DNA of 64,000 nucleotides from Acidimicrobiales bacterium (GCA_047638595.1 JBLIMJ010000002.1:640-64639); one strand, 5' to 3'. Shown: positions 1,130 through 49,768, counted from the first letter of the stretch. A program made the numbers and translations. The notes: a model not told the origin generated them from the sequence alone.

Positions 1130-1465
1130 CACCTAAGGTTCTAAAATCAATAGATGATTCTAGATACGAGGTGTGCAAGGAAGTGAGTGCGAGCCGTACT
1201 TGAGATACGGTGTGAGAAAGTGTTTAAACACTTTTGCAAGAGGTTGCCTGGTATTTTCTTTAGAAAATAATGACAACCTGTACAGCTTCTGTAAGAAGAG
1301 TTATTTCGCGAAACGTAACGAAGTTAATGAAGTGATGTTCAGAAATAAAAAGTGACTGTGGATACGAGGCGGGCAAGAAAAAAGGTCCAAGGCGTACTGA
1401 GTGGTACGGCGTCGGACCTTTTTTCGTAGCCTAACGAAGTAGACGTAGTGATTTTTTATTTCTGA
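1130..1465 (-). repeat. about 2.5 tandem copies of a terminator-associated structured module downstream of secY (hairpin-in-hairpin with GATACGAGG..GCAAG..CGTAC-loop-GTACGG core)
   Basis: repeated motifs gatacgagg(t/c)g(t/g)gcaag(g)aa and (g/c)cgtac..gtacgg at 1150-1213 and 1358-1420; repeated aacgaagt..agtgat at 1305-1335 and 1431-1458. Confidence 0.6.
1376..1426 (-). terminator. secY terminator: outer stem AAAAAAGGTCC/GGACCTTTTTT enclosing inner hairpin GGCGTAC-TGAGTG-GTACGGCG
   Basis: read from sequence immediately 3-prime of secY stop. Confidence 0.65.
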
Positions 1466-3268: not shown

Positions 3269-3967
3269 TTATGAGCTTTTTAGTTGCTTAAGTGCTTCAA
3301 CAGCAGCCTTCGCGTTATTAAGCTTATTCTTCGACCGAGAAAAAATCTTTGCAGTAACGTCCTTTACTCCTGCGAGCTCAAGTACGGTACGTACTGATGA
3401 CCCCGCTACAAGTCCACGACCTGGTGCGGGCATCATCATCACTTCACTTGACGCATATTTTACATGTACATCATGAGGAATATGTTGATCTTTATTCATC
3501 GGTACGACAATCATATTCTTCTTCGCGTTACGTGCTGCTTTTTCAATAGCAAGTTGTGTATCTCCTGCTTTACCAACACCTACACCAACTTTTCCTTTCT
3601 TGTCACCAATAACCATTGAGACAGAGAATGAGAATCGTCGTCCACCAGCCATAACTCGAGTTACACGGCGGATACTTACAATTTTTTGTTCAAATTCTTG
3701 TCGAGGACGTTCAGTTCGTCGTCCACCACGTCGAGGACGTCGCGGATTACGCTGATTTCGTCGATCACCACTTGCGTGTGAGCTGCCAGAGCTTCGTCCA
3801 GGCGTAGCGCCTTTTGATTCTGTAGCATCAACAGCAGCGGGTGCATCGGTAGAAGCGGGTGTTTCCACAGGAGCAGATGCTTCTGTTTTCGTTTCTGTCG
3901 CTTCAGGTGCTGGGGTAGAGACTGTTGTCTCTTCCGTTGTAGCTTCCTGCTTTGTTTCTTCTGACAT
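3269..3967 (-). CDS. rpsE: 30S ribosomal protein S5 with about 90-aa N-terminal T/E/A/P- and Arg-rich extension
   Basis: C-terminal 150 aa match S5 (VTRVMAGGRRFSFSV..GDKKGKVGVGVGKA); N-terminal low complexity. Confidence 0.9.
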   Translation of the reverse strand: MSEETKQEATTEETTVSTPAPEATETKTEASAPVETPASTDAPAAVDATESKGATPGRSSGSSHASGDRRNQRNPRRPRRGGRRTERPRQEFEQKIVSIRRVTRVMAGGRRFSFSVSMVIGDKKGKVGVGVGKAGDTQLAIEKAARNAKKNMIVVPMNKDQHIPHDVHVKYASSEVMMMPAPGRGLVAGSSVRTVLELAGVKDVTAKIFSRSKNKLNNAKAAVEALKQLKSS

Positions 3968-4371: not shown

Positions 4372-4552
4372 TTAGATACGAGACGAGTGATGAAAATAAT
4401 TTGAGTCGTACACATGTTCCTTACAGGAACTGTACAGGTTGTCGATATTTCTAAAGAAATATCTGGCAACCTCTTGCGAAAGCCTCCCAGGCTTTCTCAC
4501 AACTAAAATTATTTTTTGAAACTCAACGACGTAGATGAAGTGATTTAAAGTA
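4372..4552 (-). repeat. structured intergenic module between rplR and rplF, same family as the secY/rpsG downstream modules
   Basis: contains agatacgag, gagtcgtaca..tgtacagg, and aacgacgtagatgaagtgat motifs shared with 1130-1465. Confidence 0.5.
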
Positions 4553-5086
4553 TTACACCGCTTTCTTACCTTGTTTACGGATGACATATTCCCCTTGATA
4601 CCGAATTCCTTTCCCTTTGTATGGTTCAGGTGGTTTAACCTTACGGATGTTTGCAGCAAACTGGCCGACTGCATGCTTATCAATACCTGAAACGGTAATG
4701 ACACTCTTTTCTACTGTTGTAGTCATGCCTTCTGGTACATCCATCAGTACAGGATGTGAGAATCCTACGCTGATAGTAAGTTTCTGTCCTTGTACTTCAG
4801 CACGGTACCCTACTCCTTCAATTTCAAGTACTTTACTGAACCCTTCAGTAACTCCTGTAACTAAGTTTCGTGCAAGTGCTGCGTAGGTACCCCAGAGAGC
4901 TTGTGCTGCCTTGGTTTCCTTTGCTGGTGCAAGAGTAATGACGCCATCTGCGACCACCACTGTTACATCTTCGCGCATATCTTGCGTCAACGTCCCTTTG
5001 GGACCTTTCACTGTAAGTACTCCGTCTGCAAATGTTACGTCAACACCTGCCGGAATAGTTACTGGAATTTTTCCTAATCGACTCAT
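4553..5086 (-). CDS. rplF: 50S ribosomal protein L6 (start taken at MSRLGKIPV; ORF extends 20 codons further upstream)
   Basis: MSRLGKIPVTIPAGVDV..; two repeated L6 domains. Confidence 0.9.
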   Translation of the reverse strand: MSRLGKIPVTIPAGVDVTFADGVLTVKGPKGTLTQDMREDVTVVVADGVITLAPAKETKAAQALWGTYAALARNLVTGVTEGFSKVLEIEGVGYRAEVQGQKLTISVGFSHPVLMDVPEGMTTTVEKSVITVSGIDKHAVGQFAANIRKVKPPEPYKGKGIRYQGEYVIRKQGKKAV

Positions 5087-5087
5087 A

Positions 5088-5483
5088 TTACCAGATGATA
5101 AAGAGTTGCTCTCCTCCAACGTTTGCCTTACGTGCATCTTCTCCATTGAGGATACCTACTGGCGTTGAAAGGATCATTTTCCCTTTACCGAACTTAACTG
5201 GATAAATTTCTGTAGCTTTTGTATAGACTCGACGACCTGGCTTTGAAACTCGTTTTACGCCACTGATTCGGTGTGAACCATTTGCGTCATACTGAAGCTT
5301 CATGTCCAAAGACTTAGCTACGCCTTCTCCTTTTGTTTCTGCTGTTACGAGATATCCTTCCTTTACAAGCTTATCTGCAATTGCATGCTTTAGCTTTGAA
5401 TACGGAAGTGATACTTCTTTGTTCCCTACCATTCCAGCGTTTTTCAACTGGATGATGAAATCTCCTACTGTATCGCCTACCAT
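5088..5483 (-). CDS. rpsH: 30S ribosomal protein S8
   Basis: MVGDTVGDFIIQLKNA..; conserved S8 C-terminus GGEQLFIIW. Confidence 0.9.
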   Translation of the reverse strand: MVGDTVGDFIIQLKNAGMVGNKEVSLPYSKLKHAIADKLVKEGYLVTAETKGEGVAKSLDMKLQYDANGSHRISGVKRVSKPGRRVYTKATEIYPVKFGKGKMILSTPVGILNGEDARKANVGGEQLFIIW

Positions 5484-6333: not shown

Positions 6334-6891
6334 CTATTTAGTTTCAGTTTCTGCTTTTTTCAGTGGTAAACCGATATGTCGTAAAAGCGCTTCAGCCTCC
6401 GCAGGAGTCTTTGCGGTTGTTACGATAGTTATCGCTAGACCAAACACATCTTTAATATCCTCGTTTACTGTTTCTGGGAAGATCGTATGGTCTTTCAGAC
6501 CAAGTGTGATGTTTCCCATTTCATCGATAGCTGTTGCATTTAACCCACGGAAGTCGCGAGTTTGTGGCAAAGCAACGTCGATAAGCTTATCGAGGAATGT
6601 TCGCATACGTTCGCCACGAAGTGTGACTTGGTATCCAACAATATCCCCTTCTCGTAGCTTGAAAGTCGCAATTGACATTCGAGCTGCTCGAGGTGACGCT
6701 TTCTGACCTGTAATCTGAGCAAGTCGATCTTGAATAAGAGCAATCTTATTTTTATCATCAATCTTACCAGTGCCCGTAGAAACGATAACCTTCTCAATAC
6801 GTGGTGCTTGCATTACGTTTGTGTATGCGAATGTATCCTTAAGAGAATCATACACGGCCGCAAGCTTTGTTTGCATATTTAATGTTGCCAT
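6334..6891 (-). CDS. rplE: 50S ribosomal protein L5
   Basis: 185 aa; KVIVSTGTG..; operon context. Confidence 0.9.
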   Translation of the reverse strand: MATLNMQTKLAAVYDSLKDTFAYTNVMQAPRIEKVIVSTGTGKIDDKNKIALIQDRLAQITGQKASPRAARMSIATFKLREGDIVGYQVTLRGERMRTFLDKLIDVALPQTRDFRGLNATAIDEMGNITLGLKDHTIFPETVNEDIKDVFGLAITIVTTAKTPAEAEALLRHIGLPLKKAETETK

Positions 6892-6893: not shown

Positions 6894-7205
6894 TTAGATT
6901 TTCTTACCTGAAGGTCGTGCAACACGAACCTTCGTAGTCTTATCACCATCTGTTTCGACCATGTATCCTACACGTACCGCCTTCTTACCTTCTAAGAGTG
7001 CTACGTTTGAAACATGAATGGGTGTACTTTTTTCAACAATTTGACCTGCTGATCGAGCACGTTTGTTCTTCTGGTGTCGTGTGACTACATTTACACCATC
7101 GATGAGTACTTTTTCAGTCTTTGGAAAAGCCTGTTCAACAATACCTGTCTTCCCTTTGCTTTTACCAGCGATCACGATGACGTTGTCTCCTTTTTTGATT
7201 TTCAT
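6894..7205 (-). CDS. rplX: 50S ribosomal protein L24
   Basis: MKIKKGDNVIVIAGKSKGKTG KOW motif. Confidence 0.9.
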   Translation of the reverse strand: MKIKKGDNVIVIAGKSKGKTGIVEQAFPKTEKVLIDGVNVVTRHQKNKRARSAGQIVEKSTPIHVSNVALLEGKKAVRVGYMVETDGDKTTKVRVARPSGKKI

Positions 7206-7222
7206 ACGAATTTCTATTTAGA

Positions 7223-7594
7223 TTAAACGACTTCGGGAGCCAGAGATACAATCTTCTGGAAACCAGCCTCTGATAATTCACGTGGGATAGGGCCAAACAC
7301 ACGGTTTGCCTTAGGTTCCTTCTTTTCTTTATCAATGAGGACAACAGCGTTGTCATCAAATGACACATACGAACCATCTTTTCGACGGTACGCTTTCCTC
7401 TGACGCACTACTACACCACACACGACGTCTTTCTTTTTAACGCCTTTACGTGGTTCAGCAGATTGTACTGAAAGAATTACCAACTCGCCTAGTTCAGCAT
7501 AACGCTTCTTAGAACCGCCAAGTACCTTAAATACTCGACCAATCTTACCTCCAGAGTTGTCAGTAATCTTTACAATTGTTTGTGGTTGTATCAT
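7223..7594 (-). CDS. rplN: 50S ribosomal protein L14
   Basis: MIQPQTIVKITDNSG typical L14 N-terminus. Confidence 0.92.
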   Translation of the reverse strand: MIQPQTIVKITDNSGGKIGRVFKVLGGSKKRYAELGELVILSVQSAEPRKGVKKKDVVCGVVVRQRKAYRRKDGSYVSFDDNAVVLIDKEKKEPKANRVFGPIPRELSEAGFQKIVSLAPEVV

Positions 7595-11474: not shown

Positions 11475-11579
11475 GTTGGGGGTATGTGAGTTACATACCC
11501 CTTTTTGTATTGTCTTTTTGACATTTACGGTGTTCGTCGCCAATCACTAAGTATATTTTTTTCGTCTTCGACTCCAAAC

Positions 11580-11734
11580 CTACTAAGTGTTCTCGACCCC
11601 ACCTCAACTGTCGCTAAAGCAACATGTTTCCGGCTTGGCAAGAGATCCGCAACTGCCTCAAGGCAGTTGTTAAAACAAAGAAAAACACTCCCTTTAAAGG
11701 GAGTGTTTTTCTTTGGTTTATCTCTTCCCACCCA
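11580..11734. repeat. tandem copy 1 of a 190-bp unit: degraded rplB 3-prime end (..IIIVSN-LGGKR*) plus three-stem structured bidirectional terminator
   Basis: P1 aagagat/atctctt, P2 caactgcc-tcaa-ggcagttg, P3 aaaacaaagaaaaac[ACTCCC-TTTAAA-GGGAGT]gtttttctttg. Confidence 0.75.
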
Positions 11735-11769
11735 AGTTACTAACTATAATTATTCGCTACCGCTCCAAT

Positions 11770-11925
11770 TCTAGTAAGTACTCGCGACCCCGACTCGTCT
11801 GTTGCTAAAGCAACATGACTCCGTCTTGGGAAGCGGTCACAACTGCCTCAAGGCAGTTGTTAAAACAAAGAAAAACCTCAGGCTTAAGCCTGGGGTTTTT
11901 CTTTGTTTTACCGCTTCCCACCCAT
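11770..11925. repeat. tandem copy 2 of the same unit, overlapping the true rplB stop
   Basis: P1 gaagcggt/accgcttc, identical P2, P3 apical stem CCTCAGGC-TTAA-GCCTGGGG: compensatory changes relative to copy 1. Confidence 0.75.
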
Positions 11926-12771
11926 CAGTGGTCCTGGCTTTCGTCTTGAAACAATCAATTTGTTTGAGTGTTTCTTCGGTGATCGAGTCTTTTGACCCTT
12001 TCCTGTTGGTCGACCTTGCTTTGTGCGAGATCGTTTGTGTCCTCGAGGAGATTTACCTTCACCACCTCCATGTGGGTGGTCAACTGCATTCTTCGCAGTA
12101 CCACGAGTCTTCGGTCGAAGTCCCATGTGTCGTGCGCGTCCTGCTTTACCGATTGATACCAGACGATGTTCTTCGTTTGATACTTCACCGACTGTTGCCC
12201 AACATGTTGAGAGTACCTTACGGATCTCAGTTGATGGCATTTTGAGTGTTGTGTATCCTGCATCGTGAGCGATCACTTCTGCGTGGATACCTGCAGCTCG
12301 AGCAATACGTGCTCCACCTTCAGGCTTCATCTCCACTGCATACACGAATGTACCAAGTGGGATGTTTGCGAGAGGAAGGCGGTTGGCTTTGGTTGGCTTT
12401 GCAGTTTCAGAAACTACAAATGTATCACCTTCCTTCATTCCTTGCTGTGAAAGAATGTACCGCCGTGCGCCGTCTGCATACAGAACTAAAGCAATGAAAC
12501 CAGTTCGGTACGGATCGTACTCGATAGTCTCTACTTTCGCAGGGACATCTTTCTTATCAAACTTAAAATCGATTTGTCGGTATTTTCGTTTATTACCAGC
12601 TCCTCGGTACCAGTTTGTGATACGTCCAGCGCTGTTACGTCCTCCTGTAGACTTCTTACCTTTTGTAAGTGCCTTTAGTGGTTTGCTTGCAGTTGAAGTA
12701 AGATACTTCTTGTACTCAATCACCGAGCCGTCACGACGGCCCGCTGATGTAGGTTTATATTTTTTTACCAT
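11908..12771 (-). CDS. rplB: 50S ribosomal protein L2 (start at MVKKYKPTSAGRR; ORF extends to 12834)
   Basis: KKYKPTSAGRR, VDHPHGGGEG motifs. Confidence 0.93.
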   Translation of the reverse strand: MVKKYKPTSAGRRDGSVIEYKKYLTSTASKPLKALTKGKKSTGGRNSAGRITNWYRGAGNKRKYRQIDFKFDKKDVPAKVETIEYDPYRTGFIALVLYADGARRYILSQQGMKEGDTFVVSETAKPTKANRLPLANIPLGTFVYAVEMKPEGGARIARAAGIHAEVIAHDAGYTTLKMPSTEIRKVLSTCWATVGEVSNEEHRLVSIGKAGRARHMGLRPKTRGTAKNAVDHPHGGGEGKSPRGHKRSRTKQGRPTGKGQKTRSPKKHSNKLIVSRRKPGPLMGGKR

Positions 12772-12840
12772 AATATCTGAGTGGTACCCAATAGTTAATT
12801 TCTGTGCTGTATGCTGCCACTGTATCAGTGACATTCATAC

Positions 12841-15795: not shown

Positions 15796-16149
15796 TTAGA
15801 TCATTTTCACGTCGATGTTCACACCTGAGGGTAGTGACAAGTTCGTGAGTGCTTCAACCACTTTCGCATTCGGTTCCATGATGTCGATTACACGTTTGTG
15901 CATTCGCATTTCGAATTGTTCTCGCGCATCCTTGTGGACAAATGACGAACGGTTGACTGTGTATTTCTTGATTTCCGTTGGAAGCGGGATTGGTCCTACC
16001 ACTTTTGCGTCGAAACGCATTGCAGTATCGATAATCTGCTTTACAGATGCATCAAGAATCTTGTGCTCATATGCACGGACACGGATTCGAAGCTTTGGAG
16101 TTGCGTCCTTTGCTTCTTTCTTTGTGTCTTTTTTAGATGTTGTAGCCAT
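15796..16149 (-). CDS. rpsJ: 30S ribosomal protein S10 (ATG at MATTSK; ORF track start is TTG 7 codons upstream)
   Basis: RIRVRAYEHKILD..GPIPLPT.. Confidence 0.9.
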   Translation of the reverse strand: MATTSKKDTKKEAKDATPKLRIRVRAYEHKILDASVKQIIDTAMRFDAKVVGPIPLPTEIKKYTVNRSSFVHKDAREQFEMRMHKRVIDIMEPNAKVVEALTNLSLPSGVNIDVKMI

Positions 16150-16205
16150 AATAATTAATTGCTTTCGCAAACTTGCTAGATTGCTTTATATGCAAGACGT
16201 GTGAG

Positions 16206-16250
16206 GAATGAAACGCGAGGCGTACGTAAGGTACGATGAGCGTTTCATTA
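16206..16250 (-). terminator. tuf-rpsJ intergenic hairpin-in-hairpin: outer AATGAAACGC/GCGTTTCATT, inner GGCGTAC-GTAAG-GTACGATGA
   Basis: read from sequence; member of CGTAC..GTACG module family. Confidence 0.55.
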
Positions 16251-16290
16251 CCGAAACACAACGCAGCAGATGAAGTAATATGCGAGTTTG

Positions 16291-17481
16291 TTAGGCTACG
16301 ATTTTAGTAACTACGCCGGCTCCTACTGTCTTACCACCCTCACGGATAGCAAAGTTTGTCTGTTCTTCCATAGCTACAGGAGCTACAAGCTTCACTTTGA
16401 AAGTTGCAGTTTGTCCAGGCATAACCATTTCAGTACCTTCAGCAAGTGTTACGTCACCAGTTACGTCCGTTGTTCGGATGTAAAACTGTGGTTTGTAACC
16501 TGAGAAAAATGGAGTGTGACGCCCACCTTCTTCCTTACCAAGTACGTATACTTCAGCTTCGAACTCAGTGTGAGGAGTTACAGACCCCTTAGCAGCAAGC
16601 ACTTGACCTCGGTGTACCTCTTCTTTCTTAGTACCTCGTAGAAGGATACCTGCATTGTCTCCAGCTTGTGCTCGATCCAGTTGCTTGTTGAACATCTCAA
16701 CACCTGTAACAGTAGTTGTTGCAGTGTCTTTCATTCCAACAATTTCAATTTCCTCTCCAACCTTTACAGCTCCTCGTTCTACACGACCAGTTACCACAGT
16801 ACCACGTCCTTCAATTGAGAAAATGTCCTCAACTGGCATAAGGAATGGCTTATCAAGATCTCGTTCTGGAATCGGGAAGAAGTCATCCATTGCTTGCGTA
16901 AGCTCAAGAACTTTCTTACCCCATTCTCCAGCAGGATCTTCAAGAGCCTTAAGTGCTGAACCTTTAATGATAGGTGCGTTTTCGCCATCAAATCCGTTTT
17001 TTGTAAGCATTTCTCGAAGCTCTTCTTCAACGAGCTCAAGCATTTCTTCATCATCAACCATATCGCACTTGTTCATAAATACGATCATGTTTGGTACACC
17101 AACTTGCTTTGCAAGAAGTACGTGCTCACGAGTTTGTGGCATCGCACCATCCGTTGCAGCAACTACAAGTACCGCACCGTCCATCTGCGCTGCACCAGTA
17201 ATCATGTTCTTAATGTAGTCCGCGTGACCTGGCGCATCAATGTGTGCGTAGTGTCGATTTGGAGTCTCATACTCAGAGTGAGAAAGAGAAATAGTGATAC
17301 CTCGCGCCTTTTCCTCTGGCGCTTTGTCAATATCCTCTACAGCTTTAAGGTTTGCTGTGTAACCTTCACCAGCTTGTGCTAGTACGTTTAGAATTGCAGC
17401 TGTAAGTGTAGTCTTACCGTGGTCTACGTGACCAATAGTTCCTACGTTTACGTGCGGCTTAGTTCGATCGAAATCTGCCAT
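16291..17481 (-). CDS. tuf: elongation factor Tu
   Basis: 396 aa; [22 protein letters not shown] motifs. Confidence 0.97.
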
Positions 17482-17717
17482 AATAATAGCTTAACTTTAA
17501 TAAATATATACCGCACACGGCTGCTTCCTAATTTTAATATAAAAATAAAAAGCTTCTCCAGTGCAAATGTAGGGCCGCGAGAACATCGCGCCACATTTCC
17601 ACTGCAGGTATGACAATGAGCAGTATAGTTTCCCCGACACAGTATAAGTCGTATCGGTGCGGCAATAGTACCAGAATCGACCTTTTTTGCAAGCGATATT
17701 CTGGACCAGAATACAAA

Positions 17718-17757
17718 CAAACCGCACAATCTCGCGCATGCGATTTGATTGTGCGGT
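17718..17757 (-). terminator. AACCGCACAATC..ATTGTGCGGTT 12-bp stem with palindromic CGCATGCG loop, 3-prime of hypothetical gene
   Basis: read from sequence. Confidence 0.5.
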
Positions 17758-17764
17758 TATTACT

Positions 17765-18364
17765 TTATGGCGGTTTTCTATTTGAATTTGCTGCCAACGC
17801 CTGGCCCGGGTGAGTCACAATCTGACCATAGGTTTCGGGCACAGAGGCCCACACACTATCATCCGGTTGTGTTAACACTTCAGTCAGCTTGCTTTCAATG
17901 CGTTTCAGAAAAGCATGTTGCGCGTAACAAGCTTTATCAGCTGAAGCTACATATAGTTCATAAGGGCTACAGAGCATGTAGGTATGACCAACCCAAATGT
18001 TACTCACTGAAATCTGGGCTAGTTTATTTTCTTTGAACCAAAACGTTGACATTTTTTTAATCAACGGTTCATCACGAAAAAAATCAACTGAGCATTCCTC
18101 GAGCAAACCAAGCCGACTCAGAATAGTTTCGTCTGAGGCACTAGTTTCTAGTTGTAACACTAGAGACGCAGCTGTAGAGACCCACAAATCATCTGCTTCA
18201 GTCATGCCTCCTCTAACTTCACAACCAAAGGAGCAGTCATCGTACTCTTTCAAAAAGACTAACTTATCATCAGTATGTCCAGCTTCCCAGTCATAAGCTT
18301 CAAATATTGGGTTTAAAGGATCAAACATTTGCGTAACTCCATGGTTGCAAAATTTCTTCTTCAC
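17765..18364 (-). CDS. hypothetical cytoplasmic protein (199 aa) located between tuf and fusA
   Basis: ORF, no recognisable family. Confidence 0.5.
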   Translation of the reverse strand: MKKKFCNHGVTQMFDPLNPIFEAYDWEAGHTDDKLVFLKEYDDCSFGCEVRGGMTEADDLWVSTAASLVLQLETSASDETILSRLGLLEECSVDFFRDEPLIKKMSTFWFKENKLAQISVSNIWVGHTYMLCSPYELYVASADKACYAQHAFLKRIESKLTEVLTQPDDSVWASVPETYGQIVTHPGQALAANSNRKPP

Positions 18365-18585
18365 GGTCGAGTATGCATAATTTTAATGAATATGTAAAGC
18401 AAAAGACCAGCCAGTGCCGGTCCTTTGCTTTATTGGTCTTCAGTCATTAGGGTCAAGTTTCTAATTAGCTAATCGGTATATAGAGAGAGTAAATCATCAA
18501 CTTTTAATCCTTACTTTCACAAACGAATGATATCGTAAAAGTTTACTTTTATGATTCATGAGTGCAGGGAAAGAAAATTTATTTA

Positions 18586-18662
18586 CAGGATCTGTTCAGG
18601 TTATCGCTATTTTTACTAAGGTAAAAATAGCTGGTAACCTTCATTAAGACCTCACGAAGAAT
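18586..18662. repeat. copy A of 77-bp structured element (contains GCTATTTTTAC-TAAG-GTAAAAATAGC hairpin) downstream of fusA
   Basis: identical to 18694-18771. Confidence 0.8.
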
Positions 18663-18693
18663 ACTCCTCTGTTTCTTCGGTCTTTTAATCCTT
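18663..18693 (-). pseudogene. duplicated, frameshifted remnant of the fusA 3-prime end
   Basis: ctcctctgtttcttcggtcttttaatcc versus the true 3-prime end at 18807-18833 (cttctgtttcttcggtcttaatgcc). Confidence 0.6.
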
Positions 18694-18771
18694 ACAGGAT
18701 CTGTTCAGGTTATCGCTATTTTTACTAAGGTAAAAATAGCTGGTAACCTTCATTAAGACCTCACGAAGAAT
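18694..18771. repeat. copy B of the 77-bp element
   Basis: identical to copy A. Confidence 0.8.
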
Positions 18772-18806
18772 AAAAATAAGGCACCCTGCGGGGTGCCTTA
18801 TTTTTA
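18772..18806 (-). terminator. fusA intrinsic terminator AAGGCACCC-TGCG-GGGTGCCTT with flanking A/T runs (bidirectional)
   Basis: abuts fusA stop codon. Confidence 0.7.
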
Positions 18807-20993
18807 TTCTTCTGTTTCTTCGGTCTTAATGCCTCTCGCTGCTTTAATTTCGGCAGCGACATTTGGTGGTACTACTTCGTAGTGGTCAAATTCCATAGTC
18901 ATTGAGGCGCGTCCTTGTGTCATAGATCGTAGTGAGTTTGTGTATCCGAACATTTCAGAGAGTGGTACTTTCGCATTTACGATAGTCTTTCCTCCGAGTT
19001 CTTCAGAACCTTCAACCTGTCCACGCTTAGAAGAAATGTTTCCATTTACGTCTCCTAAGTATTCTTCTGGTGTTCGTACTTCAACCTTCATCACCGGTTC
19101 AAGGAGTACTGCGCTTGCACGCTTGGAAGCTTCTTTAAATGCATTGATTCCTGCAAGTTTGAAGGCGATTTCACTTGAGTCCACGTCATGGTATGAACCA
19201 TCGTAAAGCTCAATTGATACATCTTCCATCTTGTATCCAGCAACCTGCCCTCTCGCCATAGCTTCCTTACACCCTTTCATTACTGGAACAATGTATTCCT
19301 GTGGAATCACACCTCCCTTAATACTATTGATGAATTCGAAATGGTCTTCTCGCGTTACATTCTTTGCAAGCTTCTTTGGTTCACCATCCTCATCTAACTC
19401 TAGTGCTTCAAGCGGCTTGATTCGAATCTTCACGTGACCGTATTGCCCACGTCCACCTGACTGCTTGATGTACTTGTGTTCTGCTTCGGCCTCTCGTTGG
19501 ATTGTTTCTCGGTATGCTACTTGTGGCTTACCAATATCCGCTTCAACACCAAACTCTCGTTTCATTCGGTCAACAAGAATGTCGAGGTGAAGCTCACCCA
19601 TACCAGCAATAATAGTTTCAAGTGTTTCAGGATCAGAAGATACCTTAAATGTAGGGTCTTCATCAGAAAGTCGTTTAAGTGCCATTCCCATTTTTTCCTG
19701 GTCTTGCTTTGTTTTAGGCTCTACACGCACTGCAACCACTGGTTCAGGGAACGTAATAGTTTCAAGGAGCATCGGTGCATCCACATCACAAAGTGTATGT
19801 GAAGTTTTTACTTCTTTAATTCCTACCGCTGCAGCAATCTCTCCTGCGTACACTTCATCCACCTCTTCTCGTTTGTCTGCCATAAGTCGTACGATTCGTC
19901 CTACTCGTTCTTTGTTTCCAGTAGATGAGTTCATGATGTATGTCCCAGACTTCATCGTACCTGAATACACACGGAAGAATGCAAGTTGCCCCACAAACTT
20001 ATCGTCTTGTAGTTTGAACACAAGAGCGCTCAATGGTTCATCATCAGAAGGTTTCCGTGTGATGACAGTTTCTTCATCTTTGATGTCAGTTCCTTGAATA
20101 TCAGGAAGATCAAGTGGAGACGGGAGGTAGTCAACCACAGCATCAAGTACAAGTTGTACACCGATGTTCTGCAATGCAGTACCGGCCATAACAGGGAAGA
20201 TTTCATTTGCGAGCACCGCAACACGAAGTACTCGTTTCAAGTCTTCGTTTGAAGGTTCATTTCCTTCAAGAAAAGCTTCCATAAGCGCATCATCATGCTC
20301 CACAACTCGTTCAACAAGTTCCGCTCGACGTGCTACTGCTTCTGCAACAAACTCTTCAGGAATGTCCGCTTCAGTAACATCTGTTCCCATTTCTCCTGAA
20401 AAAGAGTACGATTTCATAGTGATAAGGTCTACCACTCCACGCATGTCATTTTCTGCCCCCATAGGAATCTGGATTCGGCACGCTTTCTTTGAAAGACGTT
20501 CTTCGATAGATTTAACCGCAGCATCGTAGTCAGCTCCCATTTTGTCCATCTTGTTTACAAAACAGATTCGTGGCACTGCAGCTTCGTCAGCATACCCCCA
20601 GTTTGTTTCAGTCTGTGGCTCTACACCAGCAGCACCATCAAATACCACAACCGCACCATCAAGTACACGCATAGAACGCTTTACCTCTGCAGTAAAGTCG
20701 ATGTGACCTGGAGTATCAATAATGTTAAAGGTGAACTTTTTATCGTTATTGTCTCGATCTGTTTCTAGTGTTTTTGACCAGTTACAAGAAATAGCAGCAG
20801 AAGTAATAGTAATACCACGCTCTCGTTCTTGGTCCATCCAGTCAGTGACTGTTTCACCGTCGTGAACTTCACCAATCTTATGACTCATTCCTGTATAGAA
20901 AAGAATTCGTTCAGATGTAGTTGTTTTACCAGCATCAACGTGCGCAACAATACCGAAGTTACGTAGTCGATCTAGTGGAAATGCTCGTGCCAT
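18804..20993 (-). CDS. fusA: elongation factor G
   Basis: 729 aa; AHVDAGKTTT, DTPGHIDF, NKMD. Confidence 0.97.
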   Translation of the reverse strand: MARAFPLDRLRNFGIVAHVDAGKTTTSERILFYTGMSHKIGEVHDGETVTDWMDQERERGITITSAAISCNWSKTLETDRDNNDKKFTFNIIDTPGHIDFTAEVKRSMRVLDGAVVVFDGAAGVEPQTETNWGYADEAAVPRICFVNKMDKMGADYDAAVKSIEERLSKKACRIQIPMGAENDMRGVVDLITMKSYSFSGEMGTDVTEADIPEEFVAEAVARRAELVERVVEHDDALMEAFLEGNEPSNEDLKRVLRVAVLANEIFPVMAGTALQNIGVQLVLDAVVDYLPSPLDLPDIQGTDIKDEETVITRKPSDDEPLSALVFKLQDDKFVGQLAFFRVYSGTMKSGTYIMNSSTGNKERVGRIVRLMADKREEVDEVYAGEIAAAVGIKEVKTSHTLCDVDAPMLLETITFPEPVVAVRVEPKTKQDQEKMGMALKRLSDEDPTFKVSSDPETLETIIAGMGELHLDILVDRMKREFGVEADIGKPQVAYRETIQREAEAEHKYIKQSGGRGQYGHVKIRIKPLEALELDEDGEPKKLAKNVTREDHFEFINSIKGGVIPQEYIVPVMKGCKEAMARGQVAGYKMEDVSIELYDGSYHDVDSSEIAFKLAGINAFKEASKRASAVLLEPVMKVEVRTPEEYLGDVNGNISSKRGQVEGSEELGGKTIVNAKVPLSEMFGYTNSLRSMTQGRASMTMEFDHYEVVPPNVAAEIKAARGIKTEETEE

Positions 20994-21338
20994 AATAATG
21001 TTAAATATGTGTGTAAATAATAAATCACGTAAAAAATAACTCTTACGCGCCTCCCTTCACCTTTTCATATACATATATATGTATTTCGTCGGAGAAAGTA
21101 ATTGTCCAAGGACAAAGTGCGAGTACTATACGGCATTTATCCCATTTAAGCAACGAAATAATACCCTTAAATGACCACTTAAAGCGAAGCTTTTAAGTGG
21201 TCAATTATGTGCAACATACATCCCAATACCTTTGGTTTAGGATGAATATTGACTTTTATACTAAAATATGATATAATACAAATAGGTTAAGGGAACGAAT
21301 ATTCACTTCGTTTTCACCCCGAGCAACAGGAGATCATC

Positions 21339-25715: not shown

Positions 25716-25784
25716 ATCTAATATTATGCCACACTAATGTACTGAGCTTCTATTTTATAAACAGAAACATAACCATCTAATCCT

Positions 25785-25816
25785 CAATGACAATTCTTTC
25801 TCGTTTTTCATCGACA
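25785..25816 (-). repeat. remote duplicate of the 3-prime end (last 12 codons and stop) of the AbrB-like gene at 26703-26888
   Basis: tcaatgacaattctttCtcgtttttcatcgac versus tcaatgacaattctttTtcgtttttcatcgac at 26719-26750; encodes VDEKRERIVIED*. Confidence 0.75.
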
Positions 25817-25924: not shown

Positions 25925-26524
25925 ATGGGAACAGATCACAGCAACAGACCAAACATTCTCGACAACTTGATGGATCGCAGGACAATTGTGCTTGCCGATA
26001 AGATTACAAGTAAATCAATCGGCGAGATCTGCAATCAAATTCTGACTTTGCAGACAATCTCAAATGATGAAATATTTCTAATCATCCAAAGTGGTGGTGG
26101 TAATACGCACTCAGCACTGACCATGTGCGATATGATGACACATCTCATCACTGCACCGATTACTGGTATTGCACTTGGTGATTGCCACTCGGCTGCAACT
26201 TTCATCATGTTACATTGCGATACACGTATCGCTTTACCGCATGCAAAATTCATTATCCATTCTGGCACAATTAGTGGCGTCTCAACCCGCATGGATGATG
26301 CCGCGGAAGAAGAAGTGAAACATCTTCTTCAAGACATCCAGAGAACCTCAAAGGAGGTTGTGAAGGTTTATATGGATAGGCTTGGCAAAAGTAAGGCCCA
26401 AGTCGAAGCAATCATTGCTCGAGGTGACCAATCCTTCGACAACGCCCTTTCTGCAGAAGATGCCATGAAAATTGGTCTTGTTCAAAAAATCCAGACGGGG
26501 AAACTTCCCATATTTGGTAAATGA
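25925..26524 (+). CDS. ClpP-family serine protease paralog (divergent; Ser/His/Asp positions appear conserved)
   Basis: aligns with canonical ClpP at 60571: GDCHSAATF versus [15 protein letters not shown] versus MIHQPS; RTIVLAD..I..QIL..L. Confidence 0.65.
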   Translation: MGTDHSNRPNILDNLMDRRTIVLADKITSKSIGEICNQILTLQTISNDEIFLIIQSGGGNTHSALTMCDMMTHLITAPITGIALGDCHSAATFIMLHCDTRIALPHAKFIIHSGTISGVSTRMDDAAEEEVKHLLQDIQRTSKEVVKVYMDRLGKSKAQVEAIIARGDQSFDNALSAEDAMKIGLVQKIQTGKLPIFGK

Positions 26525-26702: not shown

Positions 26703-26888
26703 TTACCCTACCCAATCTTCAATGACAATTCTTTTTCGTTTTTCATCGACGGTAATCTGCAGCTTTTGTTTTGACTGCCAGCGAAATAGACGCACTGCTT
26801 CTAAGGGGAGTGTGACGCTATAACTTTTTCCATTTGAAATTTTATTTAAAGACCGCACATTCTCTTCCCCTACCTTTCTTCGCGCCAT
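26703..26888 (-). CDS. AbrB/MazE/SpoVT-family swapped-hairpin DNA-binding protein (antitoxin-like, 61 aa)
   Basis: KSYSVTLPLEAVRLF..KLQITVDEKRKRIVIE pattern. Confidence 0.55.
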   Translation of the reverse strand: MARRKVGEENVRSLNKISNGKSYSVTLPLEAVRLFRWQSKQKLQITVDEKRKRIVIEDWVG

Positions 26889-33438: not shown

Positions 33439-33657
33439 CTGGGAACTGAGATTTTTTAAACGGGACAAGGTGAGCTGGACACAGCTCAAGACCTTTTGAG
33501 GTATTTTGAAGAATGAAAAATATCCAAAATATGTACAGTTTCTGTAAGAAAAAGGCCTAGAAATTTGTGAGTCGTACTTTGGGTACGGTGAACAAATTTT
33601 TGGACCTTTTAACGTCGTCTGGTGCAGAAAATGTCTGTTACCAATGGTAAATTTCAT
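33439..33657 (-). repeat. distal copy of rpsG-downstream module (includes degraded rpsG 3-prime end HW* and hairpin-in-hairpin with GAGTCGTAC..GTACGGTGAAC)
   Basis: aligns with 33763-33900 with a 90-bp insertion. Confidence 0.7.
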
Positions 33658-33762: not shown

Positions 33763-33900
33763 AGAATGCAACCTGGGAACTGAGATTTTCAAAAGCAGAC
33801 AAGGCAAAAGGCCCAAAAATTTGCGAGCCGTACATTGGTACGGTGAACAAATTTTTGGGCCTTTTAACGCCGTCTGGTGCAGAAAATGTCTGTTACCAGG
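33763..33900 (-). repeat. proximal copy of rpsG-downstream module overlapping true rpsG stop; contains perfect 18-bp outer stem AAAAGGCCCAAAAATTTG/CAAATTTTTGGGCCTTTT (33806-33865) with inner CCGTAC-ATTG-GTACGG
   Basis: read from sequence. Confidence 0.7.
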
Positions 33901-34366
33901 CGAAGTGGGCAAATGCTCGGTTAGCCTCTGCCATCTTGTGCGTATCCTCCTTCTTCTTCACTGCAGCTCCTTCTTCTTTAGCTGCAAGCATGAGTTCTGA
34001 AGCGAGTGCCTTGAACATTGGTACGCCCTTCTGACTTCGAGAAGCCTTGATGAGTGCACGTAGTGCAAGTGCGAGTCGTCGTTCGAGACGAACTTCGCGA
34101 GGTACTTGGTAGTTTGCACCACCAACACGTCGTGACCGTACTTCCATCTGCGGACCAGCGTTTCGAACTGCTGTATCAAAGATTTCAATTGGATCACCAC
34201 CACCTTCTTTTGCATCCTTTATTACATCGAATGCTCCATACACGATTTTTCGTGCAGTTTCTTTTTGACCGTTAAGCATCACGTAGTTGATGAGTCGTTC
34301 AACATCTACTGAACCAAACTTCATGTCTGGCTTGACGATTGGTCGTTTCTTTATTGGTCGTCGCAT
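33893..34366 (-). CDS. rpsG: 30S ribosomal protein S7
   Basis: [14 protein letters not shown].. Confidence 0.93.
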
Positions 34367-34552
34367 ATTGTTATTAATTAATGCGAATGAGAAATTGGCA
34401 TAAACCTATTTTCATTCTTCGCATAGTTTGGCTCCGAACCCTTGGGAGGTTGAACCGCGTCTACTATCTGTAGCGAATATAAACTATTTGTAATTGGCCC
34501 CGGGGACACCGTCCCCCTTCTAAATCTGAAAGAAATTGTTTTCTAGCGCGGC

Positions 34553-34632
34553 AGGCAAGAAATTTTTCATGAGTCGTACGTATAGTACGGTGAATGAAAA
34601 ATTATCGAAGCCTAACAAAGCTAGGAAGCAAT
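34553..34632 (-). promoter_or_regulatory. rpsL-rpsG intercistronic structured module (ggcaggcaagaaa plus AATTTTTCAT[GAGTCGTAC-GTATA-GTACGGTGA]ATGAAAAATT)
   Basis: same family as secY/rpsG terminator modules; position matches the known S7 autoregulatory site of str operons. Confidence 0.5.
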
Positions 34633-35046
34633 TTATTCAGATTTAGGCATTTTAGCTCCGTATCGTGACCGCCCTCGTCTCCGCGCATCCACACCTGTAG
34701 CGTCGTACTTTCCTCGTACAACAGTGTAGTTCACACCAATGTCCTTCACACGTCCACCTCGTACAAGTACCACAGAGTGTTCTTGTAGAGTGTGACCAAT
34801 ACCTGGGATGTACGCTGTAATTTCCTGACCGTTTGAAAGTCGTACTCGAGCAATCTTTCGAATCGCAGAGTTCGGCTTACGCGGAGTCTTTGTAGTTACA
34901 CGTGTACACACCCCTCGCTTAAATGGCGAGTTGTATGCGGTTGGTTTGTTCTCAATTGAGTTAAAACCAGACTGAAGAGCACCAGTTTTTGACTTGGTTG
35001 CTTTATCACGTCGTCGCTTTCTTGTTAATTGATTTATTGTTGCCAT
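34633..35046 (-). CDS. rpsL: 30S ribosomal protein S12
   Basis: [10 protein letters not shown]..; PKKPNSA-like region. Confidence 0.95.
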
Positions 35047-37188: not shown

Positions 37189-37761
37189 ATGTACGAAGCA
37201 AAAACATTTACCATTCCCGTCATGGACGGGATTTCAGAAAGAACAATCAAAGAGCACCTTGGTCTCTACGCAGGGTACGTGAAACACGTCAATCTTATCC
37301 ATGAAAAAATTGCTGTATACAAGAACGAAGCGGAGGCAAATGGCTATGCAATAGCAGAAATGCAGCGACGCCTTGGATTTGAGTTTGGAGGAATGCGTAA
37401 CCATGAATACTACTTCACACAGTTTGAAGGAGGTGCCCAGGAAATCCCTGAAGGTGATTTTAGAACACTTGTTGAAACTCAATTTGATTCAACTGATGCA
37501 TTCGTTGAACACTTTAGAAATATCGCAATGACACGTGGTGTCGGATGGGCAATGGCATACGTTGACCGTCAAACTAACCAGTTGGTATGTACCTGGGTTG
37601 ATGAGCAGCACCTTGGACAGCTCGCAGACCTCGACATTGTCCTTGCTCTAGATATGTGGGAGCACTCATACATGCTTGACTATGCACCATCAGAAAAGAA
37701 ATCATATGTAGATGCATTCTTTGCAAACCTCAACTGGGAAGTTGTCGCTAATCGAGTTTAA
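37189..37761 (+). CDS. Fe/Mn superoxide dismutase family protein (divergent N-terminal His motif); start at MYEAKTF, ORF opens at 37147
   Basis: NHEYYF, GVGWAMAY, DMWEHSYMLDY match SOD ligand regions; HHxKHH motif degenerate (EHLGLY). Confidence 0.6.
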   Translation: MYEAKTFTIPVMDGISERTIKEHLGLYAGYVKHVNLIHEKIAVYKNEAEANGYAIAEMQRRLGFEFGGMRNHEYYFTQFEGGAQEIPEGDFRTLVETQFDSTDAFVEHFRNIAMTRGVGWAMAYVDRQTNQLVCTWVDEQHLGQLADLDIVLALDMWEHSYMLDYAPSEKKSYVDAFFANLNWEVVANRV

Positions 37762-39398
37762 CGAAAAGATATAGATGTATGATTGGCTGCAGAAGAGCTT
37801 TGCTCTTCTGCAGCCAATCTTTTTTCTACCTCCTGCTCTTCTTCAATCACCCATCCTGAAACTACAGGAGACGAACTAGAAGTTGTTTTTGGCTTCTTCT
37901 GCAATCGATACAACACATACCCTAGAAAAGCATACCCAATTATCACCACCCAAAATGGAAAGGTTGGCACAGCAAACGATGCAAACGGTACCCCTGCAAA
38001 GAAAGTTGCCACAATCAAAATATACGAAAGAGATATATGTGTCACAAACCCTATGAGCACTGCCACTGGTACTGAGACAAGTCCAACGAGTCCGGTGATG
38101 AATGTCAGTAACATAGCAATGGGTACCATCGGTAACACCAATACATTTACAATGACCGACACTATAGATAGTTCACCAATCTGATACAACAAAATAGGCA
38201 TTACGAAAATCTGCGTTGCGAGCGTTGCAGTAAGAAACTCTCGCATGCCTAATAAGGTTGGCATAAATTGCAAACGCTGTTCAATGTGAGTCGCTAGAAA
38301 AATAAGGCCTAAGGTCGCAAGGAATGACAATTGGAACCCGACGTCATACACCAGCAAATACGGATTGATGAGAATCATAATAATCCCTGCAAAGCACAGA
38401 GCACGCATGACTGCATAGGTACGCCCGGTAGATCGCGCAAAGAGTATCAGTGCAGCCATAATACTTGCTCGTACAACAGTCGCCGACAAACCAACAAGTA
38501 CTGCGAAACAGATTATTGAAGCAATACCAAATGGAACCCGAGCTTTATACGGAAGGATGTATGAAAGGACATAGGTAATGAAGATCACCACCAACATCAC
38601 GTTGTACCCCGAGAGCACCACAATATGAATAATGCCTGTCTTACGAAAGACTTCCTCAAGTTCGTCGCCGAGCGCTTGCTTGACTCCAAGAAGTAATCCT
38701 TCAGCAAGTCCTACCTGCGGTTCAGGTAATACTTCTTCAATGCTTTGCATAAACAGTTGTTTCACTTTAAGGATTTTTGATATGAAAATGTTACCTGCAT
38801 CTTTTTCTAAAGTCGCCACCTCTGCAAAAGAGACAACGTAGGAAACACCTCGAGCATGTAAGTAACCAGGATAATTGAACGTACGACTAAGATCAGTTTC
38901 AAACACACCCGGTTTTTTAAGATGTCCTTCAATAATAATTCTGTCTCCGTAAGAGACGTCTGTATAACGGTGTGTGGTAACTAGAAGTAGTTCATCTTCA
39001 ACTCGCACATACAAATGAATGGTCTTTTCACGAATATCGGGCTCACGTACAACCACCCCTTCAAGAATCACTTCTTGGTCAATCTGTGTTTCATATATCT
39101 GACTGATTTCATCAATAGCAGCAAATTCGAAACGAATCATCCCTAACACGCACGTAACAAGAAAAATTGAGACGAACGCAAGATTGCCCGAGCAAGGGGC
39201 TTCGCCCCTTGCTCGGGCAATTAACCCAAACGCCCCCGCAAACATCACCATCCAGGCAACATACGCAAATCCAATGTCAAACAACGATGCGGCAGCAACA
39301 CCTACTGCAAAACCAATGATTCCTATATAAAAACAAAAACTGCTCACTTTTTTAGTGTAGCAGAAACGATGCTGGTGTGATTCCGAAAATGGAAACAC
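37758..39398 (-). CDS. comEC: ComEC/Rec2-family DNA uptake channel protein (DUF4131 plus competence domain), lacking the MBL domain
   Basis: 546 aa polytopic; competence-domain helices; MBL domain encoded separately at 36275-37138. Confidence 0.75.
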   Translation of the reverse strand: MFPFSESHQHRFCYTKKVSSFCFYIGIIGFAVGVAAASLFDIGFAYVAWMVMFAGAFGLIARARGEAPCSGNLAFVSIFLVTCVLGMIRFEFAAIDEISQIYETQIDQEVILEGVVVREPDIREKTIHLYVRVEDELLLVTTHRYTDVSYGDRIIIEGHLKKPGVFETDLSRTFNYPGYLHARGVSYVVSFAEVATLEKDAGNIFISKILKVKQLFMQSIEEVLPEPQVGLAEGLLLGVKQALGDELEEVFRKTGIIHIVVLSGYNVMLVVIFITYVLSYILPYKARVPFGIASIICFAVLVGLSATVVRASIMAALILFARSTGRTYAVMRALCFAGIIMILINPYLLVYDVGFQLSFLATLGLIFLATHIEQRLQFMPTLLGMREFLTATLATQIFVMPILLYQIGELSIVSVIVNVLVLPMVPIAMLLTFITGLVGLVSVPVAVLIGFVTHISLSYILIVATFFAGVPFASFAVPTFPFWVVIIGYAFLGYVLYRLQKKPKTTSSSSPVVSGWVIEEEQEVEKRLAAEEQSSSAANHTSISFR

Positions 39399-49764: not shown

Positions 49765-49768
49765 GATG

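Follow-up and report, generated by a model that had tools for sequence, protein, structure and literature searches.

Stacked units at the 3' end of fusA belong to a dispersed family of small structured repeats in Patescibacteria

The DNA analyzed here is a 64,000-nt stretch (the window) recorded as Acidimicrobiales bacterium (GCA_047638595.1, JBLIMJ010000002.1:640-64639), and the feature under study is a direct repeat at the 3' end of fusA, the gene encoding elongation factor G (EF-G). fusA was identified as an open reading frame (ORF) of 729 aa with the EF-G Pfam domains, and the closest EF-G homologues of its product were from Candidatus Paceibacteria/Patescibacteria (91% identity). As these homologues belong to Paceibacteria, an origin from cyanobacteria was rejected. 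A reading made without database searches (the sequence-only reading) had described an identical 77-bp element present twice; self-comparison of the region showed the duplication to be real, but the repeated segment is 81 nt long, with a start-to-start period of 109. The features at the fusA end are listed below, numbered from the first base of the window. Units u1 and u2 are members of a repeat family, designated element E, and loci in other assemblies carry numbers prefixed with L.

18804-20993, minus strand: fusA
18765-18812, both strands: terminator palindrome, 22 bp, 100% complementary, loop at 18787-18790, flanked by T/A runs
18686-18831, minus strand: u1, the proximal unit, with copy b2; covariance model match at 18686-18764, 52.8 bits, E value 1.4e-9
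18577-18691, minus strand: u2, the distal unit, with copy b1; covariance model match at 18577-18655, 41 bits, E value 4.7e-7
18692-18772, plus strand: 81-nt repeat copy 2, the b2 core plus GAAGAATA; 100% identity to copy 1
18583-18663, plus strand: 81-nt repeat copy 1, the b1 core plus GAAGAATA; 100% identity to copy 2
18556-18582, plus strand: flank beyond the distal unit, reading ATAAATTTTCTTTCCCTGCACTC on the minus strand; orthologous to the last-unit flank in L022 and L113
18501-18514, plus strand: 14-nt repeat CTTTTAATCCTTAC, the same sequence as the u1/u2 junction at 18682-18695

The perfect hairpin GCTATTTTTAC-TAAG-GTAAAAATAGC that had been reported is present in both copies of the repeat (18606-18631 and 18715-18740), with none expected by chance (100 shuffles). 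The 28-nt spacer between the copies (18664-18691), previously interpreted as a frameshifted remnant of fusA codons, does resemble the fusA 3' end, as 18662-18684 matches 18805-18827 at 21 of 23 positions, with a 2-nt insertion farther on (AAAA versus AA); it is, however, the 5' arm of the basal hairpin of u2. A terminator-like hairpin lies where one had been placed at the genuine fusA end (18772-18806), but its extent is larger, with 22-bp arms at 18765-18786 and 18791-18812. This palindrome overlaps the last three fusA codons, including the stop codon (18804-18806), and forms the tip of the u1 basal hairpin. It resembles a bidirectional intrinsic terminator, with the core GGCACCC/GGGTGCC in its stem and TTATTTTTATT on both strands, and is hereafter called the predicted terminator. 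The sequence CATTAAGACC, found in each repeat copy (18642-18651 and 18751-18760), is the perfect complement of the fusA codons at 18822-18831. Overall, the 271-nt fusA-end region folds far beyond shuffled sequence, with z values of -13.7 as RNA of the gene strand and -16 as DNA. The similarity score of the CTTTTAATCCTTAC repeat was 28, against a shuffle maximum of 25; its copy at 18501-18514 may be a relic of a junction or of microhomology, and a counterpart, GTAAGGATTAA, is present three times in L022.

Both units are members of a dispersed family of three-hairpin elements of 72 to 111 nt per copy. The motif TTACAGNNNCTGTWCA occurs seven times in the window against 0.24 expected, and a 40-nt core of the fusA repeat was found again at two other window sites. 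A covariance model of E (R1) was built from 22 canonical copies; its features are hairpin P_C with a TTACA loop, a CTGTWCA junction, hairpin P_B, a TCTTG junction and a TCAC end. Using R1, exactly seven copies were identified in the window (37 to 94 bits, E value ≤ 3e-6), with nothing more below an E value of 0.35; two of these are b2 and b1, and the five others span the same 37 to 94 bits. Beyond the window, R1 identified 150 copies in 99 loci searched together with it and 18 in another 16 loci. When species-representative genomes were scanned for a 23-nt motif, more than 112 loci in at least 51 assemblies matched, nearly all of them metagenome-assembled genomes (MAGs) of Patescibacteria among the matches listed, and the contigs that carry E include ones of 400 to 650 kb. 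Two motif matches, in Peptacetobacter and Clostridiales, were set aside as chance, the rest of the element being missing. E is specific to Patescibacteria (bacteria of the candidate phyla radiation [CPR]), chiefly genomes of the Paceibacteria type.

Read on the strand that starts with GTGAG, E has the architecture 5'-GTGA(G/A), P_A, GCAAGAGG, P_B, TGAACAG and P_C (NNNC-TGTAA-GNNN)-3'. On the TTACAG strand the order is nnnC-TTACA-Gnnn (P_C), CTGTTCA, P_B, TCTTGC, P_A and TCAC. Loops and junctions are conserved and the hairpin sequences vary from copy to copy; within P_B, a bulged T and a U.G pair are conserved. In an alignment of 150 sequences, 95.4% of pair cells were standard, compared with 71.5% in shuffles and 35 to 48% in slid controls, and compensatory double changes were found in all 24 pairs. 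Of the E copies, 92% lie between genes, and their frequency within 250 nt of tRNA genes is raised 5-fold. With codirectional genes on both sides, the GTGAG...CTGTAA sequence reads on the strand of the genes in 50 cases versus 19, that is, about 72% against 28% in the opposite orientation. At gathering thresholds, Rfam 15 gave no matches in the whole window, and a relaxed search gave weak, terminator-centered matches far below threshold. The E motif had no matches in IMG/VR viral contigs, no description of E was found in the open-access literature by concept or by motif sequence, and ARAGORN detected no tRNA genes in the window. Hammerhead, twister, pistol and group II domain V were considered by eye, and the junction motifs of E do not fit them.

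The organization of the fusA units differs from the canonical one in how P_A is made. In the R1 alignment, a self-contained P_A between TCTTG and TCAC is absent from b1 and b2, with TCATTAAGACC in its place, and P_A is formed instead with the fusA tail segment outside the model match. P_A built from the fusA tail is a locus-specific variant common to the window, L022, L039 and L113. On the minus strand, u1 begins with the tail arm CATTAAGACC-GAAGAAACA-GAAGAATAA, followed by the predicted terminator, TTATTCTTC-GTGA-GGTCTTAATG, P_B (GCTATTTTTAC/GTAAAAATAGC within AGGTTAcC/GgTAACCT) and P_C (ATCC-TGTAA-GGAT). Read in frame with fusA, u1 provides the EF-G acidic tail, the stop codon and the predicted terminator, and the last nine fusA codons (IKTEETEE*) fall within its basal hairpin. 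Homologues of u1 were identified as units in L022, L039 and L113. Unit u2 begins at AAGACC, directly after the P_C of u1 plus TAA. Its tail arm is frameshifted (TTAAAAGACC GAAGAAACA GAGGAGTAT) and in the predicted fold pairs with the GGTCTT of u2 itself; it lacks the terminator and the 3' arm of P_C. The tail segments of u1 and u2 differ by indels, by substitutions and by the 32-nt terminator, and the cores are identical. As the fusA tail is the u1 arm equivalent to the "remnant" arm of u2, the element encodes the gene end and is not merely located downstream of the gene; u2 is a displaced former fusA end.

At least six other genomes, each assembled independently, also have stacked and diverged units at the fusA end (L022, L039, L065, L078, L113/L114 and L115). 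The loci can be arranged in a series, from L117 with no element to one to three stacked units in L115, L113, L039, L022 and L065. The tandem duplicated fusA end proposed from the window alone is thus represented by two units here and by stacks in relatives, not by a one-off local event.

L117, EF-G identity 91%: no element at the fusA end; tail ARGVSDED*, then an ordinary terminator
L039, EF-G identity 95%, closest relative: element starting 5' GTGAAG, read as Val-Lys codons; tail VKVDETEA*
L022, EF-G identity 93%: the KTEETEA* unit, displaced in L039, is the functional end
L113, L114 and L078, EF-G identity 91%: functional tail VKIEEDEV*, then the ARGVK codons as an inverted copy, followed by a canonical element
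L115, EF-G identity 90%: arrangement as in L113; the inverted copy has compensatory changes
L065, EF-G identity 75%: three tail copies (one functional, two displaced; 4750-5100), all encoding (V)KDVEEEA*

In L039, P_A consists of the VKVDETEA* tail codons, with the stop codon in its GTAA loop, plus their inverted complement. The second unit there, after P_C, is the displaced KTEETEA* unit (AAGACCGAAGAAACAGAAGCGTAAGCTTTGTGAGGTCTTCAC...), with its first codon missing. L022 has more units beyond the functional end, each followed by a copy of the upstream region of the next gene. In L113, L114 and L078, the canonical element is followed by a displaced KTEETEE* unit with a terminator, a GTGAGGTCTTAATG core and then the downstream flank of the window; in L115, a displaced AAGACCGAAGAAACAGAAGAATAA with a terminator lies approximately 320 nt downstream. 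The terminator of the displaced L113 unit is homologous to that of the window (GCACCC..GGGTGC). Since it has the same terminator core and downstream flank, this unit is orthologous to u1 of the window, and the window lineage accordingly gained u2, or was reduplicated, relative to that state. Displaced units start with AAGACC, directly after the proximal P_C, in the window, L113, L078 and L039, and the tail arm covaries with its complement (CATTAAGACC/GGTCTTAATG in the window versus GTGAAGACC/GGTCTTCAC in L022). The tail copies of L065 have only synonymous third-position differences; thus, displaced gene ends remain coding competent.

Some further observations concern the same neighborhood. A degenerate relative of the 3' part of the element, AAGGTGTACTGGCCGCTGTAAG(C/T)GG, lies downstream of fusA in L039 (3790-3830) and L065 (4840-4880), and R1 gives it no full-copy score. 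Two contigs from independent assemblies end soon after fusA, L113 after 494 nt and L114 after 152 nt; breaks just past fusA-linked elements suggest that these repeats fragment Patescibacteria assemblies. In the window, the str operon is split, with rpsL and rpsG at 33.9-35.0 kb (33893-35046) and fusA, tuf and rpsJ at 21.0-15.8 kb (15796-21000). Between fusA and tuf lies a 199-aa ORF without a Pfam match (17765-18364). The fusA-side spacer ORFs without a Pfam match differ in relatives (325 and 117 aa in L115, 171 aa in L117), and the spacer of L022 has ORFs of 244 and 357 aa.

The five other copies in the window are located beside genes or within a remnant of one, as follows.

4415-4500, plus strand: copy a, canonical form, 94.4 bits; in the spc operon between rplF and rplR (Pfam L6 and L18), the GTGAG strand being the gene strand
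1212-1300, minus strand: copy e, 69.5 bits; downstream of secY (Pfam SecY)
33470-33553, minus strand: copy d, 37.4 bits; downstream of rpsG (Pfam S7)
43657-43753, plus strand: copy c, 72.4 bits; inside a 5' remnant of a gene for a tRNA-editing domain (Pfam tRNA_edit)
61194-61271, minus strand: copy f, 45.3 bits; immediately downstream of clpP at 60550-61170 (Pfam CLP_protease); flank score 46 versus a shuffle maximum of 27

A 62-nt sequence downstream of rpsG is duplicated at 97% identity; copy d occupies one of the two duplicates and the other is an empty site, giving a filled/empty pair for E without a target-site duplication. The flanks of copy e are duplicated over approximately 65 nt at approximately 70% identity (flank score 35, shuffle maximum 24). 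The remnant around copy c comprises codons 1 to 47 and then 13 more nt, directly upstream of the intact gene at 43142-43645 (flank score 59, shuffle maximum 29). At copy f, the order is the clpP end (IIDSIYK*), an inverted codon copy, the element and a displaced end (LIDSIYK*) with its terminator. The sequence-only reading had seen the fusA pattern at rplB, rpsG and clpP as well; rpsG and clpP do carry E copies with duplicated gene ends, but the rplB repeat is a different sequence. That site (11572-11876, minus strand, downstream of rplB at 11908-12834) is a 190-nt tandem duplication of fusA-like architecture to which R1 gives only 7 to 8 bits. Its order is gene end GGTGGGAAGCGGTAA, terminator hairpin, inverted gene-end copy ACCGCTTCCC, a 76-nt structured segment and a displaced gene end. 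The motif GTCGAGAACACTTAGTAG of the rplB site is also present in L010 and in L087, where it adjoins an E copy. Elsewhere in the window, a 37-nt repeat, 95% identical and 935 nt apart (25779-25815 and 26714-26750), flanks a divergent second ClpP-like gene (25925-26524; Pfam CLP_protease, 2.8e-26). Genes for DNA uptake or processing, ComEC (37758-39398) and RecJ (40486-42204), and a type IV pilus set (47974-52751: a pilin-like protein, PilC-like T2SSF and PilB-like T2SSE) are also present.

Across the loci examined, E has been inserted into a variety of sites. Copies of E nested within E were identified in L037 (~3300-3460), L042 and L052, an E of the "CTGTCCAC" subtype lying inside the P_B of another; a different insert of approximately 55 nt lies within E in L059 and L110. 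In tRNA-Val (L017) and tRNA-Asn (L031 and L034), E follows the GGTAGA(G) of a truncated tRNA copy, replacing 2 to 3 nt. These remnants consist of tRNA positions 1 to 24, E and positions 27 to 38, always at the same D-arm position, with the intact tRNA 27 to 70 nt downstream and the conserved sequence CCTCYTTCAT upstream (L017, 1237-1476; L031, 2757-3003; L034, 6941-7160; also L005, L014 and L032). Further copies interrupt the T-loops of tRNA fragments and a 5S rRNA fragment. The latter was found in L080 (5900-7300), where E occupies 6790-6887, five E copies lie within 1.1 kb, and two partial copies of the 3' end and terminator of the 5S rRNA gene (minus strand, ~7170-7290) precede that gene. 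In L081 (2773-2864), E lies in frame and without a stop codon within an apparently intact IleRS-like ORF (an open frame of 818 codons), adding approximately 30 residues between ...WYLRRSRDRFKG (...RDRFKG) and EDEADKKLALSTLRYVL; no gene duplicate lies nearby. E inserts without a target-site duplication, and 2 to 3 target nt are lost (rpsG duplicate, tRNA-Val, tRNA-Asn, tRNA T-loops and 5S). It also lacks terminal inverted repeats, as its ends, TTACAG... and ...TCAC, are not complementary, and the inverted repeats present are its internal hairpins. Three candidate explanations of these sites were set aside. An IS608-like role of the upstream flank as guide or target for P_C does not agree with the tRNA and 5S cases, where the element brings both P_C arms; had tRNA loci simply been duplicated in tandem, the spacer before the intact tRNA would be related to the sequence on the upstream side of the remnant, and it is not; and retrocopy rescue models are unsupported, since the spacers are not local leaders.

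The duplicated gene ends beside E were then compared statistically. In the window, flank similarity exceeded all 200 shuffles for five of the seven copies. Among 137 E copies, left-versus-right flank similarity was above the 99th percentile of 447 matched control positions in 49 (36% versus 1%), and in approximately half of those 49 the duplicate abuts the TCAC (GTGA) end exactly. The DNA between gene-end duplicates is 109 to 430 nt long and noncoding, with no recombinase gene inside. Two types can be described in gene orientation. In the 3'-end type, an intact gene is followed, often after an inverted copy of its last codons, by E and a displaced 3' end; in the 5'-end type, a 5' remnant with embedded E continues for only 7 to 18 nt (often 12) past E and is followed by a spacer and the intact gene. 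Pooled differences between displaced and functional ends numbered 5, 4 and 27 at the first, second and third codon positions, respectively (144 sites each, P = 8e-7). This distribution also departs from the 1:1:2 of in situ duplication followed by neutral decay (chi-square ~9, P ~0.01). For the copy c remnant, with 47 open codons and approximately 64% nucleotide identity to the gene, the counts were 18, 8 and 25. Displaced and functional ends differ as alleles under coding constraint do, and E has a trait of integrative elements, a duplicated gene end with mainly synonymous differences. A duplication of another kind is present in L097 (3704-4023), where 1.62 copies of a 191-nt unit, 100% identical, stand in tandem; the unit comprises the final 94 nt of a 508-aa gene, the 3' untranslated region and E. 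The second E is truncated to 24 nt and stops where the stop codon of a convergent gene lies, and at the outer junction the host sequence TTTCTCAGAC resembles the element end TTTCTCAC, a microhomology.

The reading we favor, with a probability of roughly 0.6, is that the fusA feature is a two-unit stack of a small, nonautonomous, structure-dependent mobile element of Patescibacteria, E, with the distal unit displaced. E lands in intergenic DNA and in gene ends. In the fusA-type variant, the 5' boundary lies within the last codons of the gene, and P_A consists of the coding sequence of the EF-G acidic tail plus its inverted complement, the tip holding the stop codon and, here, the predicted terminator. 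The proximal unit is therefore translated as the EF-G C terminus and would end the transcript. New units may join at the same host/element boundary, by reinsertion or by unequal or illegitimate recombination, each pushing older ones downstream, where they would persist as displaced gene ends. Some of this recombination was probably with DNA of related lineages; import is probable because the copies diverge in a synonymous fashion and because ComEC, RecJ and the type IV pilus set are also in the window. Only insertions that leave a complete gene would survive, so that duplicates always involve a gene end. Membership in the family, the hairpins, insertion at varied and nested sites, the link with partial gene duplicates, the coding of the EF-G tail by the proximal unit and stacking at fusA in several lineages are direct observations; the route of unit addition, the order of addition and mobilization in trans by an enzyme are what we infer from these arrangements.

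Several observations weigh against this reading. Units u1 and u2 have 81-nt cores with 100% identity, yet there are approximately five differences in the adjoining 28 nt; a single clean duplication is therefore insufficient, and gene conversion or a second event is required. Either the duplication is very recent and the dead tail arm has since decayed, or gene conversion has acted on the core only. The 40 window ORFs compared with Pfam include no gene for a transposase, integrase, reverse transcriptase or HUH nuclease; as no autonomous partner was found, mobility is read from the distribution of E alone. An RNA that benefits the host would likewise account for conserved positions (for example, the rplF-rplR spacer) and for the strong purifying selection on structure, and the counts of G.U versus A.C pairs point to neither folding strand, nor to RNA or a single-stranded DNA form. 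The codon bias of the displaced ends would equally fit arrays in which each unit is periodically functional, as opposed to import from other lineages. Finally, all data come from metagenome assemblies.

A more specific version, in which E is a mobile cassette that targets gene ends, is possible but doubtful. Such a cassette would be approximately 100 nt long and inserted at the host/element boundary by an enzyme or at the RNA level, with P_A holding replacement terminal codons, a stop codon and a terminator; units would stack as in integrons and displaced ends would stay coding competent. As E would carry a replacement gene end, essential and highly expressed genes (EF-G, ClpP, ribosomal proteins, tRNAs and 5S rRNA) would survive its invasion. 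A more extreme form would have the unit removed at the RNA level (5' GUGA ... CUGUAAGNNN 3'), with the gene joined in frame to the next tail; in L039, this would give ...MRG/KTEETEA*.

It seems unlikely that E is chiefly a host-beneficial cis-acting RNA (a stabilizer or terminator of 3' ends, a processing signal or an antisense regulator) whose spread and duplications are side effects of recombination. The strong covariation, the 50:19 gene-strand bias, the intergenic location and the enrichment near tRNA genes would all be expected of such an RNA. Recurrent flanking motifs across genomes suggest candidate conserved positions, hairpins of gene end and inverted copy are kept by compensatory changes (L113 versus L115; window versus L022), and the window unit holds the predicted terminator of fusA. 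However, E also interrupts other E copies and dead fragments of tRNA and 5S genes, and one copy lies in frame within a gene for an aminoacyl-tRNA synthetase; 28% of copies have the opposite orientation; the fusA locus of a 91%-identical relative (L117) has an ordinary terminator and no E; and no Rfam family matches the element. A host-beneficial role and mobility of E are not mutually exclusive.

The possibility that E copies are miniature site-specific cassettes, with a recombinase acting on the folded element and inserting small circles (tail plus core, 110 to 430 nt) at the host/element boundary, is considered improbable. Such insertion would be akin to that of integron cassettes at attI or of phages whose attP holds a replacement gene end. 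The newest unit would be proximal, and displaced units do begin at the same nucleotide (AAGACC) in three lineages; repeats extend beyond one unit length (1.74 units here, 1.62 in L097); as in attC, the sequence varies over a constant structure that retains a bulge and a U.G pair; differences between the duplicated gene ends are mainly synonymous, as for e14 in icd; and 2 to 3 nt are lost at insertion sites. Nevertheless, neither the 40 window ORFs scanned nor the tiny inserts contain a recombinase, the insertion sites of E share no common core, attC R and L boxes are lacking, and no circles were observed.

A one-off slippage duplication of the fusA 3' end, together with a private hairpin, is very improbable. 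Two head-to-tail units with an exact 81-nt repeat are what slippage would leave, and the L097 unit, identical over its repeated length and with microhomology at its junction, indicates that duplication of the slippage type does occur around E. The fusA unit is, however, a member of a family with seven copies in the window and 175 elsewhere, diverged stacks lie at fusA in at least six other genomes, the u1 and u2 tails differ by indels, substitutions and the terminator beside identical cores, and the displaced ends have diverged under coding constraint.

Least probable of all is an assembly artifact, in which strain alleles of the fusA end were joined through a repeat node or the repeat was expanded: although the sources are MAGs, the ends differ in an allele-like, mostly synonymous manner, duplicates often abut the repeat exactly and the L113 and L114 contigs end within a few hundred bases of fusA, diverged stacks with orthologous junctions and flanks conserved in independent assemblies from different pipelines (window, L022, L039, L078, L113, L115 and L065) argue against it, as do the tRNA-Asn remnant with its element conserved in L005, L014, L031, L032 and L034, the E copies within contigs of 400 to 650 kb, and remnant/intact-copy junctions that share no repeat k-mer.

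CPR bacteria have streamlined genomes of approximately 1 Mb, and in the window E has a density of approximately 1 per 9 kb and sits in the ends of the most essential and most highly expressed genes. The family explains puzzling partial duplicates of tRNA, 5S rRNA, ribosomal-protein, EF-G and ClpP genes in CPR assemblies, as well as contig breaks beside those genes, and it therefore matters for annotation and binning. Under the favored reading, a selfish or semidomesticated repeat rewrites the C terminus of a universal translation factor, and strong covariation without a known family marks a new structured nucleic-acid motif. Site-specific addition of units, or their exchange between lineages along with the gene end, would amount to a new way in which recombination drives the turnover of gene ends; the DNA-uptake gene for ComEC and the type IV pilus set in the window bear on recombination with imported DNA.

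Among known systems, E was compared by description, not by sequence, with Rickettsia palindromic elements (RPEs), structured repeats of approximately 100 nt that in a reduced genome occur between genes, in RNA genes and in frame in translated genes. The in-frame copy in the IleRS-like gene and the unit that encodes the EF-G tail are similar; E differs in host phylum, with no sequence relationship expected, in consisting of three hairpins with conserved single-stranded motifs and in its preference for gene ends. To our knowledge, partial host-gene duplicates and stacking have not been described for RPEs. With REP/REPIN sequences and the palindrome-associated transposable elements (PATEs) derived from IS200/IS605 and mobilized by HUH Y1 enzymes, E shares the lack of terminal inverted repeats and target-site duplications, precise ends, hairpins conserved over sequence, an orientation bias and a dispersed, intergenic distribution. 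In contrast to these elements, which enter on the 3' side of an existing, conserved tetra- or pentanucleotide, the TTAC of E arrives with the insert and is absent from intact tRNA targets, and the hairpins of E covary freely, whereas TnpA and RAYT recognize specific hairpins. Neither enzyme was found among the 40 window ORFs, and partial duplication of host genes is not a PATE or REP feature. Miniature inverted-repeat transposable elements (Correia elements, ERIC and RUP) are likewise short, nonautonomous and multicopy, are often cotranscribed and can provide terminators; they are defined by terminal inverted repeats and target-site duplications, and E has neither, losing 2 to 3 nt instead.

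Two classes of integrating DNA are also similar in part. In e14 or phage 21 in icd, and in islands at tRNA 3' ends, the incoming DNA supplies a replacement gene end; as with E, the gene stays intact and the old end is a nearby remnant with mainly synonymous differences. E, however, inserts only 110 to 430 nt, encodes no integrase, has many target genes, occurs at both 5' and 3' gene ends and stacks repeatedly at one site. Integron attC sites and cassette arrays resemble E in conserving structure over sequence and in having the newest unit proximal, but the E consensus GGTTGTC...GGCAACC does not fit the GTTRRRY of the attC core sites (RYYYAAC...GTTRRRY), the R''/L''-L'/R' boxes are absent, no IntI or integrase Pfam match was found in the window, and E units carry gene ends and are dispersed through the genome. 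The likeness to group II introns, which start with 5' GUGYG, have six domains including the catalytic domain V and are at least 400 nt long, is superficial and confined to the GTGAG start, as E is only 72 to 111 nt long with three simple hairpins and has no Rfam intron match. Diversity-generating retroelements, with their template and variable repeats, were rejected, as the target genes are housekeeping genes, no reverse transcriptase was found among the 40 window ORFs scanned and the mismatches, by inspection, are not adenine specific. Small dispersed repeats of cyanobacteria, reportedly described by Elhai et al. in 2008 as 21 to 27 nt long, without an obvious transposase and in hairpin contexts, are also very small and mobile and differ from E in phylum and length; we know of no report of gene-end duplication for them. 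E is a small structured interspersed repeat that shares some behavior with each of its closest analogues but lacks at least one defining feature of each analogue tested, and it is unusual in coding for the termini of essential genes and replacing them repeatedly.

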